The notes: generated by a model from the sequence alone, not told the origin. DNA of 41,439 nucleotides from Spirochaetaceae bacterium (GCA_003170115.1 PMZS01000372.1:1-41439); one strand, 5' to 3'; shown: positions 14,779-38,787, numbered from the stretch's first letter. Translations and numbers: made by a program.

Positions 14779-15753
14779 TTGCCGGCCATTGCCGCCGGAA
14801 GCGAAGGTGACGGGCCGTTGCTCCTGTTCAGACCCCCTGAATACAGGCCGGAGACAATTGCTGAAGGACCGGGGGGCTTCATCAGCCTGTGCCAGCTGCA
14901 GTGGGCCGGGCGGCTCTTCCTCGCGGCTTCGACTGGCTTCAAGCCGGTGTTCCAGGCCGAGGAGTGCAGGTTGGCGGCGTATCCGCTGGATCGAGGAGAA
15001 ATGCCCGGTCCACTCGACATCTGCCCCCTTCCATACACCCACCGGATAGCCTCGTTCCACTTCGGCGGGAAAGCGCATCTGCTCGCCTCCACGCTCTGCG
15101 CCGGGAAGGCTTCCCAGGATGACTGGAGCAAGCCTGGCGGAGTCCACCTTGCAGATGTGCCGGCTTCCCCTGCCCAGGGGGAAGCGGCTTGGAGGTTCCA
15201 ACTCATCTGCAAGGGGCTGAGCAAGAACCACGGCATGGATGAGGCCGTGCTCCATCGCGGCAGGAGAGGCTTCCTGCTTTCGGCGCACGAGGGACTGTTC
15301 TTCCTCGGCGCGCCCGGCGGGAAGGCTGGCAGTTGGACACGTGAAACTATCTCTCCAGGAGAGCATAGTGACGCTTTTTCCTTCCCATGGGATGACCCCG
15401 CCGACCCCCAGGTCTTCTCTCTGAGTCCATTCCACGGAAACGTCCTGAGCCGGCACCGACGTACCGCGGACGGGTGGTCGCGCGAAACCCTGGACGATAC
15501 AATCGACTTCGGCCACGTGCTATGGGCGGGCATGGTTCTCGGCAGACAAGGCCTTCTAGTGGGAGGGCGTCGGGGCCGGAAGCAACTCGCGATCTACCGT
15601 CGCGGCGATGGAAACCGTTTCGAGAAAGAGCTCATTGATGAGGGCGTGGGCCCTACTCAGGTCACCGTGATTGAGCGGGGAAGAGGGGAAGCGCTCATCT
15701 TTGTTGCCGCGCACGCGAGGGGCGAGGTCGTTGAGTACACGCTGGGCGAGTAA
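14779..15753 (+). CDS. Hypothetical protein (no family recognised; start uncertain)
   Basis: 324-codon ORF with GC-rich third positions, co-directional and tightly packed with neighbours. Its stop overlaps the next ORF. The only canonical start is TTG 14779, but the frame is open and protein-like from 14677. Confidence 0.5.
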   Translation: MPAIAAGSEGDGPLLLFRPPEYRPETIAEGPGGFISLCQLQWAGRLFLAASTGFKPVFQAEECRLAAYPLDRGEMPGPLDICPLPYTHRIASFHFGGKAHLLASTLCAGKASQDDWSKPGGVHLADVPASPAQGEAAWRFQLICKGLSKNHGMDEAVLHRGRRGFLLSAHEGLFFLGAPGGKAGSWTRETISPGEHSDAFSFPWDDPADPQVFSLSPFHGNVLSRHRRTADGWSRETLDDTIDFGHVLWAGMVLGRQGLLVGGRRGRKQLAIYRRGDGNRFEKELIDEGVGPTQVTVIERGRGEALIFVAAHARGEVVEYTLGE

Positions 15754-15818
15754 TGGCCTTCCCGCGTGGATCGATTATACTCTTCAATAGGTCACCGACC
15801 AATCGGAGGAAATGCTCC

Positions 15819-16307
15819 ATGCCAAGAACAATCGTTGTGTTCGTCACAAGGGACGGTCATTCCAGGGTGCTTGCAGCCGAAATTGGAAAGCGGCTCAGCG
15901 CTCCTGTGTACGAGATCGGTGATCTCGTCAAGAGGAAAGGGTTTGTCGGATACATGCGAAGCGGTGCCCAGGCCTGGAAAAAGATGGCCACACCAATCGA
16001 GGATCCGGGCGTCAAGCTTGAAGGCGTGAAGTTTGTCGTGCTCGTGCAGCCCATCTGGGCCTCGGCGATCTGCCCTCCGATCCGAACCTGGCTCTCCATC
16101 CATCGGGGTGAGCTCGGCGGGGTGAGACTCGCGCTGCTCGCCTCGAACTTCGGTTCGCCACCTGCCCGGCTCCGGGCCAACTACGACGCTGAGTTCAGCG
16201 AAGTCTTCGGACCTCTCGCGGCCTTCGCAGTCCTGGCCCAGAGACTCGGTGAGCGCGAGCGCTCGAAGATCATCAGCGATTTTGCAGCCGCCCTCGAACG
16301 AGCGTGA
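15819..16307 (+). CDS. Flavodoxin-like fold protein
   Basis: MPRTIVVFVTRDGHSRVLAAEIGKRL N-terminus is typical of flavodoxin-like proteins. ATG 15819 is preceded by GGAGGA (15804-15809). Confidence 0.55.
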   Translation: MPRTIVVFVTRDGHSRVLAAEIGKRLSAPVYEIGDLVKRKGFVGYMRSGAQAWKKMATPIEDPGVKLEGVKFVVLVQPIWASAICPPIRTWLSIHRGELGGVRLALLASNFGSPPARLRANYDAEFSEVFGPLAAFAVLAQRLGERERSKIISDFAAALERA

Positions 16308-16719: not shown

Positions 16720-18063
16720 ATGCCGGATGAGATCCAAACGATCATCCTCGACTCGATCACGGAAGGCGTATTCACTGTCGACAAGAGTTTCCGGATCACC
16801 TCCTTCAACAACGCAGCAGAAAAAATCACCGGCACTCCGCGGGCGCGAGCCATCGGCATGCCCTGCAGGGAGATTCTCCGGGCCAGTATTTGCGAGGGGC
16901 GCTGCGCCTTGCACCAGACCATGCGGTCCGGAAAGCCAGTGCTTGGGAAGAACGTGGTGATACTCGATGCTGCAGGGACCCGGAGATCCATCAGCATCAC
17001 CACCGCAATCCTGCGCGGATGCGAAGGAGAGATCGTGGGTGGGGTGGAGACCTTCCGTGACCTTACGATGATCGACACCTTGCGCAAGGAGATCGAGCGG
17101 GAGTACAGCTTCGAGGATATCATCAGCCGCAGCCATCGCATGCGAACGCTTTTCGATATCCTTCCCGACGTGGCCCGCTCAGGAAGTACCGTCCTCCTGG
17201 AAGGTGAGAGTGGGACCGGGAAGGAGTTGTTCGCCCGCGCGCTGCATTCCCTCAGCCCGCGGAAGAGGAAGCCATTTGTGGCCGTCAATTGTGCGGCGCT
17301 TCCTGACACCCTGCTCGAGTCGGAATTGTTCGGTCACACGGCGGGTGCCTTTACGGATGCTCGAAAGGACACCCCCGGGCGCTTTGCCCGCGCGGAGGGG
17401 GGCACGTTGTTCCTTGACGAGATCGGCGACATTTCACCGGCCTTGCAGGTCCGCCTGCTGCGCGTCCTGCAGGAAAGATCCTACGAACCACTGGGGTCCG
17501 TGGCGCCCGTCAGCGCCGACGTAAGAATAGTCGCCGCGACGAACAAGAGCCTCGAGGGGCTGGTTCGGGCGGGCACTTTCCGAGAGGACCTTTACTACAG
17601 AATCAATGTCGTGTGCCTGTCCCTCCCTCCGCTGCGCGACCGCATGGAAAATATCCCGCTTCTCGTGGAGCATTTCATCGCGAAGCTGAACCGGATCCAG
17701 GACCGAGACATTGCAGGCATGACCGACGAAGCGTTAACGTGCCTCATGGAGTACCGGTTTCCCGGAAATGTGCGGGAGCTTGAGAATATCATTGAACGTG
17801 CTTTCATCCTCTGCAGGGGCGGGGAGATCGACAGGCACCATTTGCCGGCGCCGCTATGCGGAGATAAACAGGAGCACCACCTCACTGAGCAGGGCAGCCA
17901 CCGCAGTTTCAGTCACATGGAAGCGTCGTTCGTCATTAACGCGCTCAGGCGCAACAACTGGAGCAGGAGCCGGACAGCGATGGAACTAGGCATCCACAAG
18001 ACGACGCTGTTTCGCAAGATGAAAGCACTCGGAATCTCGGAGGAGAGTCGATCGGGCGAATGA
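16720..18063 (+). CDS. Sigma-54-dependent transcriptional activator (PAS sensor - AAA+ - Fis-type HTH)
   Basis: PAS-like N-terminus with Cys/His cluster [20 protein letters not shown]+ core GESGTGKE, a GAFTDA variant of GAFTGA, and LFLDEIGD. C-terminal [23 protein letters not shown]. Alternative start ATG 16594 (GAGGA 7 nt upstream) adds 42 low-complexity residues. Confidence 0.9.
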
Positions 18064-18084
18064 TCTGATTGCATGGCAACCGTA

Positions 18085-18131
18085 GCATTTTTGCAATTTT
18101 CTCACGGCAAATAGAGTGCAAAAATGCACTC
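18085..18131 (+). promoter_or_regulatory. Pair of inverted GCA-T4/A4-TGC sites: candidate upstream activator sequences
   Basis: agcatttttgca (18084-18095). Perfect inverted repeat gagtgca-aaaa-tgcactc (18114-18131). The two sites are reverse complements of each other, about 32 bp apart and about 90-140 bp upstream of the sigma-54 promoter. Confidence 0.4.
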
Positions 18132-18213
18132 CTAAGTATTCCATTTTTGAAATAGGCGTGATCTAATGTTTTATGAAGTAAGAAATTAGTCTTATTTCCA
18201 ATTCTCCGAACTC

Positions 18214-18229
18214 TGGCATGCTTCATGCA
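18214..18229 (+). promoter_or_regulatory. Sigma-54 (-24/-12) promoter
   Basis: TGGCAT-gcttc-ATGCA matches TGGCAC-N5-TTGCA, with GG (18215-18216) and GC (18227-18228) at the canonical spacing. It lies immediately downstream of a sigma-54 activator gene. Confidence 0.55.
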
Positions 18230-18243
18230 TCAATATATGAAGG

Positions 18244-18639
18244 ATGAGCCGAACAGCGATCGCGGCCTGGCAAGGATTCGTTGCAACGACCCTCGACTTT
18301 GCCCGGACTTTTTTCCTTGTTGATGTCGTCCACGGGCAGGTAAAGGCAAAAAGAGAAATCAGGCTTACAAACGCTTCTCTGCAGGCGATCGCCCACACCC
18401 TGGAGATCGCCGGCGCCCAGGCTGTCGTCTGCGGCGCAATCTCAGCGCCCCTTTGGAATGCCGTGGAAGCGCGCGGCATCAGGATCATCCCGTTCGTCCA
18501 CGGCGATGTCAACGAAGTCATCCAGGGATGCCTGGAAGGCACGCTCAGGGAGGAGAGGTTTCATATGGCAGGCTGCCGTCCGGGAGGGCACGGGTCAGGG
18601 AGATGCCGTCGCAGAAAATCCGGACCGTGCTGCGGATGA
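18244..18639 (+). CDS. NifB/NifX-family (dinitrogenase iron-molybdenum cofactor biosynthesis domain) protein with Cys-rich tail
   Basis: Domain-like core FFLVDVVHGQV...GAQAVVCGAISAPLWNAVEARGIRIIPFVHGDVNEVIQGCLEGTL. C-terminal GCRPGGHGSGRCRRRKSGPCCG. Confidence 0.7.
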   Translation: MSRTAIAAWQGFVATTLDFARTFFLVDVVHGQVKAKREIRLTNASLQAIAHTLEIAGAQAVVCGAISAPLWNAVEARGIRIIPFVHGDVNEVIQGCLEGTLREERFHMAGCRPGGHGSGRCRRRKSGPCCG

Positions 18640-18676
18640 CCACATCAGCGCCGGAAAAAGAGCGAGGAGGTTCCAT

Positions 18677-18952
18677 ATGTCGCGAGGTAATGGAATGGGT
18701 CCGAATGGAATGGGGCCGATGAGTGGAAGGGCTGGCGGGAATTGCATGGGCTTTTTCGGCCGCAATCGAGGCCGTGGCAACGGGAATATGTTCTTCGCGA
18801 CCGGACGTACCGGCTGGCAGCGGTGGGCTCCCGAGCAGGAGCTTGCCTTCCTGCGCAATCAAAGCAAGGACCTGGAGGAACGTCTTCAGAAGACCCGCGA
18901 GCGGATCGCGAAGTTGGAAATGGATCCGCCTGGCTCGTGTCGGCCATCCTGA
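18677..18952 (+). CDS. DUF5320-family small protein
   Basis: MSRGNGMGPNGMGPMSGRAGGNCMGF N-terminus plus a coiled-coil tail (EQELAFLRNQSKDLEERLQKTRERIAKLE) is typical of DUF5320. GAGGAGG lies 6 nt upstream of ATG 18677. Confidence 0.7.
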   Translation: MSRGNGMGPNGMGPMSGRAGGNCMGFFGRNRGRGNGNMFFATGRTGWQRWAPEQELAFLRNQSKDLEERLQKTRERIAKLEMDPPGSCRPS

Positions 18953-18980
18953 CAGGAACCCTTCGCACAGGAGACAATCA

Positions 18981-19844
18981 ATGCGACCATTGAACACGAT
19001 TCACAGACTGCGCTTCACGATCCTTGTTGATGATTCTCCGGGCGCCGAGGGCCTGCAGTCCGAGCACGGTCTTTCAGTCTGGATCGAGGCGGATCATTTC
19101 CGTGTACTCTTCGACACTGGCCAGGGAATGACCGCGATGGAAAACGCCCGACGGCTCGGCCTCGAACCGGCGGAGATCGACGCGGTGGCGATCAGCCACG
19201 GCCACAACGACCACACCGGTGGGCTGCCGGGGACTCTTGCGGCATGTCAGAAAGCGCATCTCTTCCTGCACCCGGCCGCGTTAAGGGAGCGCTACTCGCG
19301 GTCGGCGGATGGCATGGTGCGGGCCGCGGGATTCCCGCTGGGCGCGGGGGATCTGTTCGCAACCCGCAAGGAATACGTGCACTGGACGAATGCCATGACC
19401 CACCTGCAGCCTGCGGTCTTCATGACTGGGGAAATCCCGAGAGCTCTGCCGCCTGAGGCTCCCGCAGGCACGTTCTTTCTCGACGAGGAATGCGGCACGC
19501 CTGACACTCTTCTCGACGACCAGGCGCTTGCGTTCGAAACGGCCGACGGCGTGGTGATCTTTCTCGGCTGCGGCCACGCAGGGGTGCACAACACGCTGTC
19601 CGCCACCCTCCGTGCCTCCCGGACCGGACGGCTGCGCGCGATTGTCGGCGGCATGCATCTTGCGGAAGCTCCGCCCGAAGCGGTCGCCCTGCTCGCTGAT
19701 GAAATCAAGAAGCTCAATCCGCAACTCGTGTGTCCATGCCACTGCACCGGTGATCGGGCACGGGAATACCTGAAGGGGCGATTCCCCGATGCATTCTTTG
19801 AGCTGCGCACCGGCTCCACTCTCACGCTGAACGGAGTCTCGTAG
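18981..19844 (+). CDS. MBL-fold metallo-hydrolase (COG1237-like)
   Basis: HGHNDHTGG metal motif and later GCGHAG and CPCHCTG. ATG 18981 is preceded by AGGAG. Confidence 0.8.
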   Translation: MRPLNTIHRLRFTILVDDSPGAEGLQSEHGLSVWIEADHFRVLFDTGQGMTAMENARRLGLEPAEIDAVAISHGHNDHTGGLPGTLAACQKAHLFLHPAALRERYSRSADGMVRAAGFPLGAGDLFATRKEYVHWTNAMTHLQPAVFMTGEIPRALPPEAPAGTFFLDEECGTPDTLLDDQALAFETADGVVIFLGCGHAGVHNTLSATLRASRTGRLRAIVGGMHLAEAPPEAVALLADEIKKLNPQLVCPCHCTGDRAREYLKGRFPDAFFELRTGSTLTLNGVS

Positions 19845-19971
19845 AGCTTTCCGACCGGGCCCGATCCATACACGTCTTGAGGTGAATGTCGCGTAAGGAG
19901 ACGCGGCGAAGCAGGAGGACATGGCGGTCATGTCGGGTAGAATGGAGCAAACCGTTTCGAGGAGGAACCAG

Positions 19972-20600
19972 ATGGAAAACATGTCTCAGGCAACGGGCCT
20001 GCCGATGCCTCGCATCGGCGACAGGGCGCACGCCTTCAAGGCGGTCACCACCCAGGGGGAGATCGTCTTCCCCGAACAGTACTCGGGAAGCTGGGTCATT
20101 CTGTTCCGCCATCCGGCTGACTTCACCCCGGTCTGTACAGCCACATCGCGTGGCTGAGGACGATCAAGGAAAAGATTGAATACAAGGGCATGAAAAACGT
20201 CGAGGTGAAGTTTCCGCTGATCGAAGACATCACGATGGAGGCGGCGAAGAAATACGGGATGATTCAACCGGGAGAGAGCTCGACAAAAGCGGGGCGGGCG
20301 GTATTCGTCATCGATCCGAAGGGGATCATTCGAACGATCATCTATTGCCCACTCAGCCTTGGGCGGAACTTCGACGAGTTGCACCGGGTGGTGATCGCTC
20401 TGCAAACGGCGGACGCTTTTTCGGTCGCTACCCCAGCCGACTGGCGGCCCGGTGACGACGTGATCGTGCCGACCGCTGGCTCGTGCGGGGTTGCCAAGGA
20501 TCGTATGGAGAATCAGAGAGACATGACGTGTTATGATTGGTTCTTCTGCACGAGAAAAATCGCGAAGGAGAAGGTACTGAGCACGGTTCTAAAAAAATAG
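19972..20600 (+). pseudogene. Peroxiredoxin (Prx6/archaeal-type) disrupted by an internal frameshifting deletion
   Basis: The N-part ...MPRIGDRAHAFKAVTTQGEIVFPEQYSGSWVILFRHPADFTPVCT runs into TGA at 20155-20157. The C-part reads YSHIAWLRTIKEKIEYKGMKNVEVKFPLIEDI...DWFFC in a different frame from 20136 to 20600. The roughly 30 residues normally between PVCTTEF and SHIxW are absent. Confidence 0.75.
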
Positions 20601-20643
20601 GTGGATGTGCCTCTGGCGGTGTGTTCACTGAAGGGAGAAAGAG

Positions 20644-21027
20644 ATGAAGGTAGCGGTTCCCGTACGGGATGGGCTTGTGGACGAGCATTTTGGCCACTGC
20701 GAGCATTTCATGGTGTACTCGCTCGACGAGGAGAACACCGTCGTCGGAGAGCAGAAGGTCGATTCGTCCGAGGGCTGTGGATGTAAATCGAACATCGCCA
20801 GCATTCTCGCTCAGATGGGAGTCACCACGATGGTGGCGGGCAACATGGGGCAAGGCGCGGTCCAGGTCTTGCAGGCTCGCGGAATCAGAGTGATTCGGGG
20901 CGCCTCTGGAAGGGCGAGGGAGGTCGCGGAGCGGTTCGCTGCTGGCGAGGTGGCCGATTCGAGTGTGGCATGTGCGGGCCATGGGCACGGCCATGCGCAG
21001 GGTGAGGACTGCGGGCACTCGGGCTGA
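20644..21027 (+). CDS. NifB/NifX-family (iron-molybdenum cofactor biosynthesis domain) protein with His/Cys-rich tail
   Basis: MKVAVPVRDGLVDEHFGHCEHFMVYSLDEEN...VTTMVAGNMGQGAVQVLQARGIRVIRG is a typical family core. Tail is CAGHGHGHAQGEDCGHSG. Confidence 0.85.
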   Translation: MKVAVPVRDGLVDEHFGHCEHFMVYSLDEENTVVGEQKVDSSEGCGCKSNIASILAQMGVTTMVAGNMGQGAVQVLQARGIRVIRGASGRAREVAERFAAGEVADSSVACAGHGHGHAQGEDCGHSG

Positions 21028-38490: not shown

Positions 38491-38787
38491 TCAGGCATGA
38501 GGGTCGACGCAACGGCCCTTCATCCGGGCCGCACGCCGACCTTTCGAGGTCAAGGTCCAGAGATGCTGCGGGGCTCCCACATGGCATCCGTTCCTCGCGG
38601 CACAGCCGCTGCATCCCGCGGCCTTATTGGCATCGCCCTTGCACGCGAGATCTTGCAGATACCCCAGCTCGGTCAATTGCCTGAGCATCGCCTCCACCTC
38701 GCGTGGACGTACTTCCAGCGCCTGTGCGAGCTCCGTGAGGGCCACCGGCGCGCCGCCTGCCATGAGCGCGAGGAGCTTGCGTATCAT
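38491..38787 (-). CDS. FeoC-like winged-helix protein with Cys-rich tail
   Basis: Sits immediately downstream of feoB (TGAcATG junction). GGAPVALTELAQALEVRPREVEAMLRQLTELGYL is a FeoC-like wHTH, followed by CKGDANKAAGCSGCAARNGCH. Confidence 0.6.
   Translation of the reverse strand: MIRKLLALMAGGAPVALTELAQALEVRPREVEAMLRQLTELGYLQDLACKGDANKAAGCSGCAARNGCHVGAPQHLWTLTSKGRRAARMKGRCVDPHA

Follow-up and report, generated by a model that had tools for sequence, protein, structure and literature searches.

The locus described here raises the question of which system a sigma-54-dependent activator and the small NifX-like genes behind it belong to. It lies at positions 16720-21027 of a 41,439-nt stretch, hereafter the window, which was taken from contig PMZS01000372.1 of Spirochaetaceae bacterium (GCA_003170115.1), a metagenome-assembled genome (MAG) of 405 contigs and 4.08 Mb with a completeness of 91.7%. 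Gene content was established from a list of open reading frames together with Pfam and NCBIfam scans of the window. An initial annotation had regarded such NifX-like/DUF5320 clusters as uncharacterised. Our analysis indicated, at the level of sequence and gene order, that the locus is a decayed variant of the known OrpR/orp (orange protein, ORP) system, which has been under study in Desulfovibrio vulgaris from 2011 on (PMC8359166; PMC6345978; PMC3897727), and not a new system. We consider it highly probable that the locus is a deletion derivative of an orp operon (NifX1, DUF5320, ORP, Orp3/4, MrpORP, a metallo-beta-lactamase (MBL)-fold protein and a peroxiredoxin (Prx)) under an OrpR-family redox activator that would work as set out below.

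The activator gene has the following features.

16720-18063, plus strand: OrpR-family sigma-54 enhancer-binding protein, 447 aa (by Pfam and by identity to OrpR-type proteins)
16864-16905, plus strand: predicted [4Fe-4S]-binding motif of the PAS domain, C49-R-E51-X6-C58-X3-C62 (by conservation and OrpR spacing)
17203-17226, plus strand: Walker A of the activator
17344-17361, plus strand: GAFTDA loop of the activator, residues 209-214

Pfam matched the protein with PAS_4 (44.7 bits)/PAS_9, Sigma54_activat (225 bits), AAA_lid_14 and HTH_8 (33.6 bits), placing the PAS domain at residues ~9-117, the AAA+ domain at 134-300 and HTH_8 at 401-436. It is a single-component regulator comprising a PAS sensor, an AAA+ module and a Fis-type helix-turn-helix (HTH), without a receiver domain, and the AAA+ sigma-54 module with GAFTDA that had first been annotated was borne out. 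GAFTDA is an unusual variant of this loop and is listed for DVU2106, the OrpR of D. vulgaris, in a study of the sigma-54 regulome (PMC4641369). It was present in 77 of 85 relative activators bearing the PAS cysteine triad, drawn from fetched loci. The activator shared 47% identity over its full length with an NCBI-named OrpR, and 54% (E=3e-151) with a Desulfobacterota activator encoded beside GGGCGCGTTTTGCGCCC and a complete orp operon. Scores for NifA, AtoC, PrdR and the other models among the listed NCBIfam matches all fell under their cut-offs, which sets the activator apart from those types, and no OrpR model was among these matches. As a proxy for DVU2106, 400 Desulfobacterota genomes were searched for the published OrpR site GGGCGYRTTTTGCGCCC; the pattern read backwards, as a control, had a similar number of matches, and palindrome matches were hence counted only through their gene context. 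One match was a bona fide orp locus, flanked by an activator with both the triad and GAFTDA, whose co-linear operon (NifX, Mrp+NifX, Orp3/4, Orp3/4, NifX) has its own sigma-54 promoter. In the Desulfobacterota genome G444 (L130:9700-9990), the exact published palindrome, an IHF-like (integration host factor) element AATCACAACTCTT and the sequence TGGCACGCTTCCTGCG precede a co-linear orp operon, a single-operon counterpart to the D. vulgaris arrangement. By its architecture, its cysteine triad with an acidic residue at C+2, GAFTDA and these identities, the window activator is placed in the OrpR family; it was likened to DVU2106 through the published description of that protein and the proxy homologues.

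The PAS domain bears on how such an activator would sense its signal. OrpR is a PAS/AAA+/HTH activator of two orp operons in D. vulgaris; its PAS domain, which acts negatively, contains a [4Fe-4S]2+ cluster that is sensitive to redox, and the protein is active at low redox potential. C52, C61 and C65 are needed for redox sensing, and position 54 is a conserved Asp/Glu (PMC8359166). The motif had been read in the window protein as C-X9-C-X3-C-X2-H, of which the cysteine triad stands, with the spacing C-X8-C-X3-C; the histidine trailing it occurred in only 4/85 relatives. The three cysteines, whose conservation among orthologues the initial annotation had made a test, were invariant in 26/26 aligned PAS domains, and Asp or Glu occupied C+2 in 81 of the 85 triad-bearing relatives (E51 in the window protein). 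The earlier suggestion that these cysteines serve Fe-S or redox sensing gains from the same triad in OrpR. By analogy with D. vulgaris, the window PAS domain would bind a [4Fe-4S] cluster on Cys49, Cys58 and Cys62, probably with Glu51 as well, and the activator would be on under reducing conditions and off on oxidation. Many sigma-54 activators of ~700 aa in the collection (P0002-P0020, P0108) have at least two tandem PAS domains; in P0108, the sole one checked, both show the C-X8-C-X3-C triad, a hint of redox sensors with more than one cluster.

The second part of the answer comes from the genes behind the activator, which are as follows.

18244-18639, plus strand: NifX1-class protein, 131 aa (Nitro_FeMo-Co, 35 bits against a cut-off of 26.3; tree; tail)
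18677-18952, plus strand: DUF5320 protein, 91 aa, Gly/Arg-rich (Pfam, 37.8 bits; true start at ATG 18677)
18934-18993, plus strand: 3' remnant of MrpORP (orp9), the last ~19 codons (its out-of-frame translation matches the C-termini in L008, L005 and G401)
18981-19844, plus strand: MBL-fold metallohydrolase, 287 aa, with an HGHNDH motif, of the TM1679/2p4z type (Pfam, PDB)
19972-20600, plus strand: 1-Cys peroxiredoxin pseudogene in two frames, 19972-20157 and 20190-20600, with the junction at ~20130-20142
20644-21027, plus strand: NifX-like protein 2 (NifX2), 127 aa, with a His/Gly/Cys tail (Nitro_FeMo-Co, 83 bits; C-terminal match to NF041136; tree; PDB matches)

Two NifX-like proteins, DUF5320, the MBL-fold protein and a disrupted Prx had all been annotated here and are all present, with the start of DUF5320 corrected. 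To place them, synteny was compared with the contigs that carry the closest activators (74-94% PAS identity), labelled L005, L008, L044 (genome G401) and the P0036 contig among others. The order on one of these contigs was NifX1, DUF5320, NifX (119 aa), two CbiA+ferredoxin ATPases, NifX, MBL and 1-Cys Prx; on the P0036 contig it was NifX1, DUF5320, NifX, fused ATPases, Mrp+NifX (MrpORP type), MBL, OsmC and Prx. L008 has NifX1, DUF5320, an ORP-Orp3/4 fusion scar, MrpORP, MBL and Prx. L005 has NifX1, MrpORP and MBL without DUF5320, ORP or Orp3/4, and L044/G401 has NifX1, the C-terminal NifX domain of MrpORP alone, and MBL. Taken together, four same-clade contigs thus have ORP, Orp3/4, MrpORP, MBL and Prx behind this activator. 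The L008 scar (L008:9272-10303) is a 343-aa frame whose N-terminus is of the ORP type and whose C-terminal portion belongs to an Orp3/4 ATPase, the two being linked by out-of-frame sequence; it is an independent deletion scar in the orp operon of that relative. In L044, the closest species-representative genome, a block of unrelated genes of ~8 kb (L044:11345-19540) parts the activator from NifX1; an activator site and the promoter remain with NifX1, and a divergent CGGC-domain gene lies alongside, as in the P0036 contig.

In the window, the last ~10 codons of DUF5320 are read out of frame into the MrpORP remnant, which reads ..LTGTLRTGDNQCDH-stop, ending ..GTLRTGDNQCDH-stop, and whose stop overlaps the MBL start as in the relatives. 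As the MrpORP C-terminus survives between DUF5320 and MBL, a single deletion was inferred, which appears to run from the last DUF5320 codons to ~60 nt before the MrpORP stop and to measure ~3.2 kb by comparison with the P0036 contig. Judged by these junctions, this ~3-kb deletion cost the operon its orange protein and all three P-loop ATPases (Orp3/4 entirely, MrpORP but for its 3' end), and a second deletion inactivated Prx. The missing genes were not found elsewhere: Orp3 and Orp4 (MinD-type ATPases with two [4Fe-4S] ferredoxin motifs) gave no tblastn match in the assembly; nothing in it exceeded the NF041136 cut-off for MrpORP (Orp9), of which just the ~19-codon 3' remnant is left; and it held no orthologue of the orange protein (Orp8), neither Nitro_FeMo-Co gene grouping with the ORP type. 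The same-clade contigs and the deletion scar thus indicate that the locus is syntenic with a canonical orp operon and descends from it. A designed minimal module of NifX, DUF5320, MBL and NifX was also considered and was rejected, the set being the leftovers of the ~3-kb internal deletion. A co-occurrence analysis of these families with sigma-54 activators had been proposed; among the 53 species-representative loci for which 6 kb or more of downstream sequence was available, NifX-like genes were found in 39, DUF5320 in 24 and the ATPases in 24.

The intergenic region ahead of NifX1 contains the predicted control elements.

18083-18096, plus strand: predicted activator site A, TAGCATTTTTGCAA, which departs from TTGCA-N4-TGCAA at one position and lies ~151 bp ahead of where transcription is predicted to begin
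18116-18129, plus strand: predicted activator site B, perfect palindrome GTGCAAAAATGCAC, 33 bp from site A and ~118 bp upstream
18130-18213, plus strand: spacer, 69% A+T, possibly a DNA bend
18214-18229, plus strand: predicted sigma-54 promoter TGGCATGCTTCATGCA, with -24 GG and -12 GC

The sigma-54 promoter annotated at first in this position held up and recurs in other loci, and rpoN is present in the source genome. Sites A and B and the promoter are all kept in L005, at ~80% identity overall, and site A is kept in L005, L008 and L044. Sigma-54 elements with a score of at least 5 and within 120 nt of the NifX1 start occurred in 27/44 loci, against 0.15 expected from shuffles. TTGCA-N3/4-TGCAA with at most one mismatch occurred in 29 of 39 intergenic regions from many phyla, against 0.37 expected, and 15 of these regions had two copies ~32-33 nt apart. 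Paired TGCA-N4-TGCA sites were found in the 4.08-Mb assembly at this locus alone, which is also where the promoter stands; such a sole paired site fits the OrpR regulon, which comprised one locus by chromatin immunoprecipitation sequencing (PMC8359166). Promoter matches of the TGGCATGCTTCATGCA type were only two in the 41-kb window. The other match to TGGCAY-N6-TGCW, TGGCATCGCCCTTGCA (38628-38643, plus strand), lies near the 3' end of a minus-strand 704-aa frame and is probably due to chance. Scans for sigma-70 promoters and terminators performed no better than shuffles.

The promoter stands close to the gene. The -12 C stands 16 nt from the NifX1 ATG in the window and 15 nt from it in both L005 and L008, and the intervening sequences are unrelated; no Shine-Dalgarno lies between them, and the predicted 5' untranslated region (UTR) is ~4 nt with the transcription start assumed. 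The spacing was 14-20 nt, without a Shine-Dalgarno, in 20/34 loci from many phyla (window 18214-18246, L005:7493-7524, L008 and 17 more), and almost leaderless sigma-54 transcripts with 5' UTRs of ~2-8 nt are predicted from it. The remaining 14 loci had spacings of 23-33 nt, several with a visible Shine-Dalgarno.

The surviving small proteins give some idea of what the operon would deliver. NifX1 belongs to a class that forms the conserved first gene behind OrpR-type activators. Its tail had been described as Cys-rich, and cysteines are present, though their count varies from 0 to 5 among relatives; what is conserved is the Arg/Gly character after a PGC-type motif. The tail in the window is cationic and rich in Gly, Arg and Cys, the final 40 residues including 8 Arg/Lys and 9 Gly. 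All 31 class members examined have 5-13 Arg/Lys over this length, and a conserved (M/L)PGC motif precedes the tail in the class. In IssA, the thioferrate storage protein of Pyrococcus furiosus, a Nitro_FeMo-Co domain and a cationic tail hold anionic thioferrate (PMC5524996). By analogy, NifX1, and perhaps DUF5320 too, probably bind anionic metal-sulfide material, and for the surviving small proteins in general the likeliest role is to bind or carry such species. The two Nitro_FeMo-Co domains in the cluster are the only ones in the whole assembly. NifX2 grouped in the tree with the 'terminal NifX / MrpORP C-terminal domain' type, apart from the 120-aa ORP type, which matches the D. gigas ORP (2wfb). 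NifX2 as the orange protein was rejected, for it scored 37.5 bits to 2wfb against 64.6 for the ORP type, and the tree disagrees. A nitrogenase-cofactor (NifX/NafY) role was rejected as well, there being no nifHDK/EN partners in the genome: a profile search of the 4.08-Mb assembly returned no NifDK/EN-type protein (Oxidored_nitro) and no NifH over the cut-off, and the earlier view that the NifX-like proteins stand outside a nif context, based on the window, extends to the genome.

The MBL-fold protein matched TM1679 (PDB 3h3e, E=2e-33) and 2p4z (E=8.5e-30) over its full length. Its start overlaps the MrpORP stop by 13 nt, and does so in the same way in L005 (9220-9232), L008 (11498-11510) and the P0036 contig, which suggests translational coupling and a functional link of both proteins. 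A literature search on this family (COG1237, TM1679 type) gave nothing informative on its role. Pairwise ratios of nonsynonymous to synonymous substitution rates (dN/dS) against four relatives were 0.07-0.11 for the activator, 0.18-0.38 for NifX1 and 0.11-0.18 for MBL. Such low values point to purifying selection in the clade on these three genes, which survive every reduction. The Prx gene is frameshifted and lacks residues 58-82 of the intact L008 relative (~25 codons), just after the PVCT active-site motif, with 93% identity to that gene on either side of the gap. The intergenic gap before Prx is 127 nt here and up to 528 nt in relatives. The kinship of the locus is mosaic: the activator and NifX1 (16720-18639) are nearest to L005/L044, with 89% and 76% amino acid identity, and MBL and Prx (18981-20600) are nearest to L008, with 85% and ~93%. 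Either recombination between lineages or a chimeric contig may be the cause. Two frames directly 5' of the activator (14779-15753, 324 aa; 15753-16307, 184 aa) matched no Pfam or NCBIfam family.

Taken as a working unit, the locus would operate as follows. At low redox potential the [4Fe-4S] cluster would be intact and the PAS domain would leave the AAA+ module unblocked. Bound ~118 and ~151 bp upstream, at TGCA-N4-TGCA sites separated by 33 bp, the activator would reach over the AT-rich spacer and open the sigma-54 promoter at 18214-18229. The transcript would begin ~4 nt before the first ATG and code for NifX1, DUF5320 and MBL, perhaps continuing into the broken Prx and NifX2, and NifX1 would hold metal-sulfide with the help of its IssA-like cationic tail and its Nitro_FeMo-Co domain. 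On a rise in potential, the cluster would decay and the PAS domain would turn the ATPase off. Several points weigh against this account. Fe-S binding, redox response and co-transcription are all carried over from D. vulgaris, and the comparison with OrpR was made with the published description of DVU2106 and with substitute proteins. The sites differ from the D. vulgaris palindrome, with a spacer of 4 nt here and 3 nt there; no IHF consensus at up to one mismatch was found between the activator sites and the promoter; and a promoter 16 nt from the ATG is unusual, the transcription start being assumed. From pairwise dN/dS one cannot tell whether this lineage, after the deletion, still needs the genes. 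Both deletions could in principle be assembly artefacts, and the resemblance of different parts of the locus to different relatives would also suit a chimeric contig.

Whether the shortened operon still serves the cell can be answered only tentatively. OrpR, NifX1 and MBL survive every independent reduction in the clade, and we regard it as possible, if doubtful, that the ATPase-free remnant still works as a redox-controlled unit. A functionless relic, in which the genes drift to loss after the ORP complex has gone and the activator regulates nothing useful, would explain two deletions in one operon as well as the independent reductions in L005, L008 and G401. We hold it to be unlikely, since the frames of the activator, NifX1, DUF5320, MBL and NifX2 are open, neither the promoter nor the two sites are damaged, none of the reduced relatives has lost OrpR, NifX1 or MBL (dN/dS 0.07-0.38), and ATPase-free clusters exist in other phyla as well (e.g., L058 and L079). 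The deletions might themselves be products of metagenome assembly or of a chimeric contig, with a complete orp operon and an intact Prx in the real organism; the fragmentation of the MAG into 405 contigs, and a 5' part nearest to L005/L044 beside MBL and Prx nearest to L008, would agree with this. We consider it improbable, because an assembler jump needs shared words at the 3' ends of DUF5320 and MrpORP and none are visible, independent relatives sampled elsewhere have their own, different and real reductions of the operon, and the other contigs of the bin hold no fragments of Orp3/4, ORP or MrpORP.

Two further readings concern the nature of the system. The proposal of a sigma-54-controlled metallocluster or metal-chaperone system unlike anything described has in its favour that no published biochemistry was found for DUF5320, the NifX1 class or this MBL; it is very improbable, given that the regulator and gene families are those of the published OrpR/orp system and that the operon derives from the canonical one by deletion. 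PexR is a sigma-54 activator of ahpC that senses through a metal-binding GAF domain (PMC12754779), and a PexR-like peroxide sensor with Prx as its true target would account for the 1-Cys Prx (and OsmC in one relative) at the cluster end in this clade. To this we give the least credence of all the readings. The sensor here is PAS, and Pfam found no GAF domain in the activator; the promoter and sites precede NifX1, 1.7 kb from Prx; and Prx is set off by a gap and is broken while the activator is conserved. A deletion derivative of an orp operon under an OrpR-family activator thus agrees best with the regulator, the synteny and the scars.

The locus alone is of little weight, being one more, damaged copy of a system described since 2011, and its interest lies in what it shows together with its relatives. 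OrpR was tentatively limited to deltaproteobacteria in 2021 (PMC8359166). Activators with an OrpR-type PAS domain (Cys triad, GAFTDA) and orp-like clusters were found at L044-L123 in Planctomycetota, Phycisphaerae, Zixibacteria, Ignavibacteria, Acidobacteriota, KSB1, Krumholzibacteriota, Hydrogenedentota, Nitrospirales and other MAGs, as well as in ~70/400 genomes of the window's own phylum. OrpR-type activators and their target clusters thus reach well past deltaproteobacteria, into a spirochaete-like lineage. Outside Desulfovibrio, the predicted binding site is TTGCA-N3/4-TGCAA, with the pairs three helical turns apart, and, among the predicted targets, the most constant is a NifX-like protein whose Arg/Gly tail resembles that of IssA. 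The natural deletion variants indicate that ORP, Orp3/4 and MrpORP can be lost and that OrpR, NifX1 and MBL are kept. If the remnant does work, OrpR, the cationic-tailed NifX1 and MBL, and not the orange-protein/ATPase complex, would form the functional core of the ORP system, and the sigma-54 transcript that yields NifX1 would be nearly leaderless, with the same promoter arrangement in 20/34 loci. Such comparisons could steer knock-out work on the function of the ORP system.

Compared with known systems, the MBL-fold protein resembles TM1679 (3h3e) and 2p4z over the full length, including the HxHxDH metal motif; these structures lack an assigned function and do not explain the role of MBL here. 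The NifX1 class shares with IssA a globular IPR003731/Nitro_FeMo-Co domain followed by an unstructured, glycine-rich cationic tail. The IssA tail has 70 residues and is rich in aromatic residues, whereas that of NifX1 has ~25 and is Arg/Cys-rich; regulation differs, and the formation of Fe-S nanoparticles is a trait of IssA. The ORP complex of D. vulgaris and D. alaskensis (Orp3, Orp4, Orp5, Orp8, which is the orange protein, and Orp9, which is MrpORP) is approached by the neighbourhood in close relatives, and the window itself shares with it the small Nitro_FeMo-Co proteins, the MrpORP remnant and predicted sigma-54/OrpR control. Unlike that complex, the window has lost MrpORP, the orange protein proper and the two ATPases of the MinD-ferredoxin type. 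In the publications consulted, the orp operons of D. vulgaris contain neither MBL nor peroxiredoxin, whereas the cluster of this clade has both.

The comparison closest to the argument is that with OrpR DVU2106. The D. vulgaris protein uses the site GGGCGYRTTTTGCGCCC in contrast to TGCA-N4-TGCA here, and it serves two divergent operons in contrast to one co-linear operon. The window locus further differs in that its spacer shows no IHF consensus, its promoter stands right against the start codon, its host falls outside the deltaproteobacteria, and the Fe-S cluster and redox response of its regulator are predicted. Both activators nevertheless have the PAS/AAA+/HTH architecture, the C-X8-C-X3-C triad with an acidic C+2 residue, and GAFTDA. 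In both cases the gene adjoins its sole target, palindromes stand ~90-150 bp before a sigma-54 promoter, and the regulon is apparently one locus.

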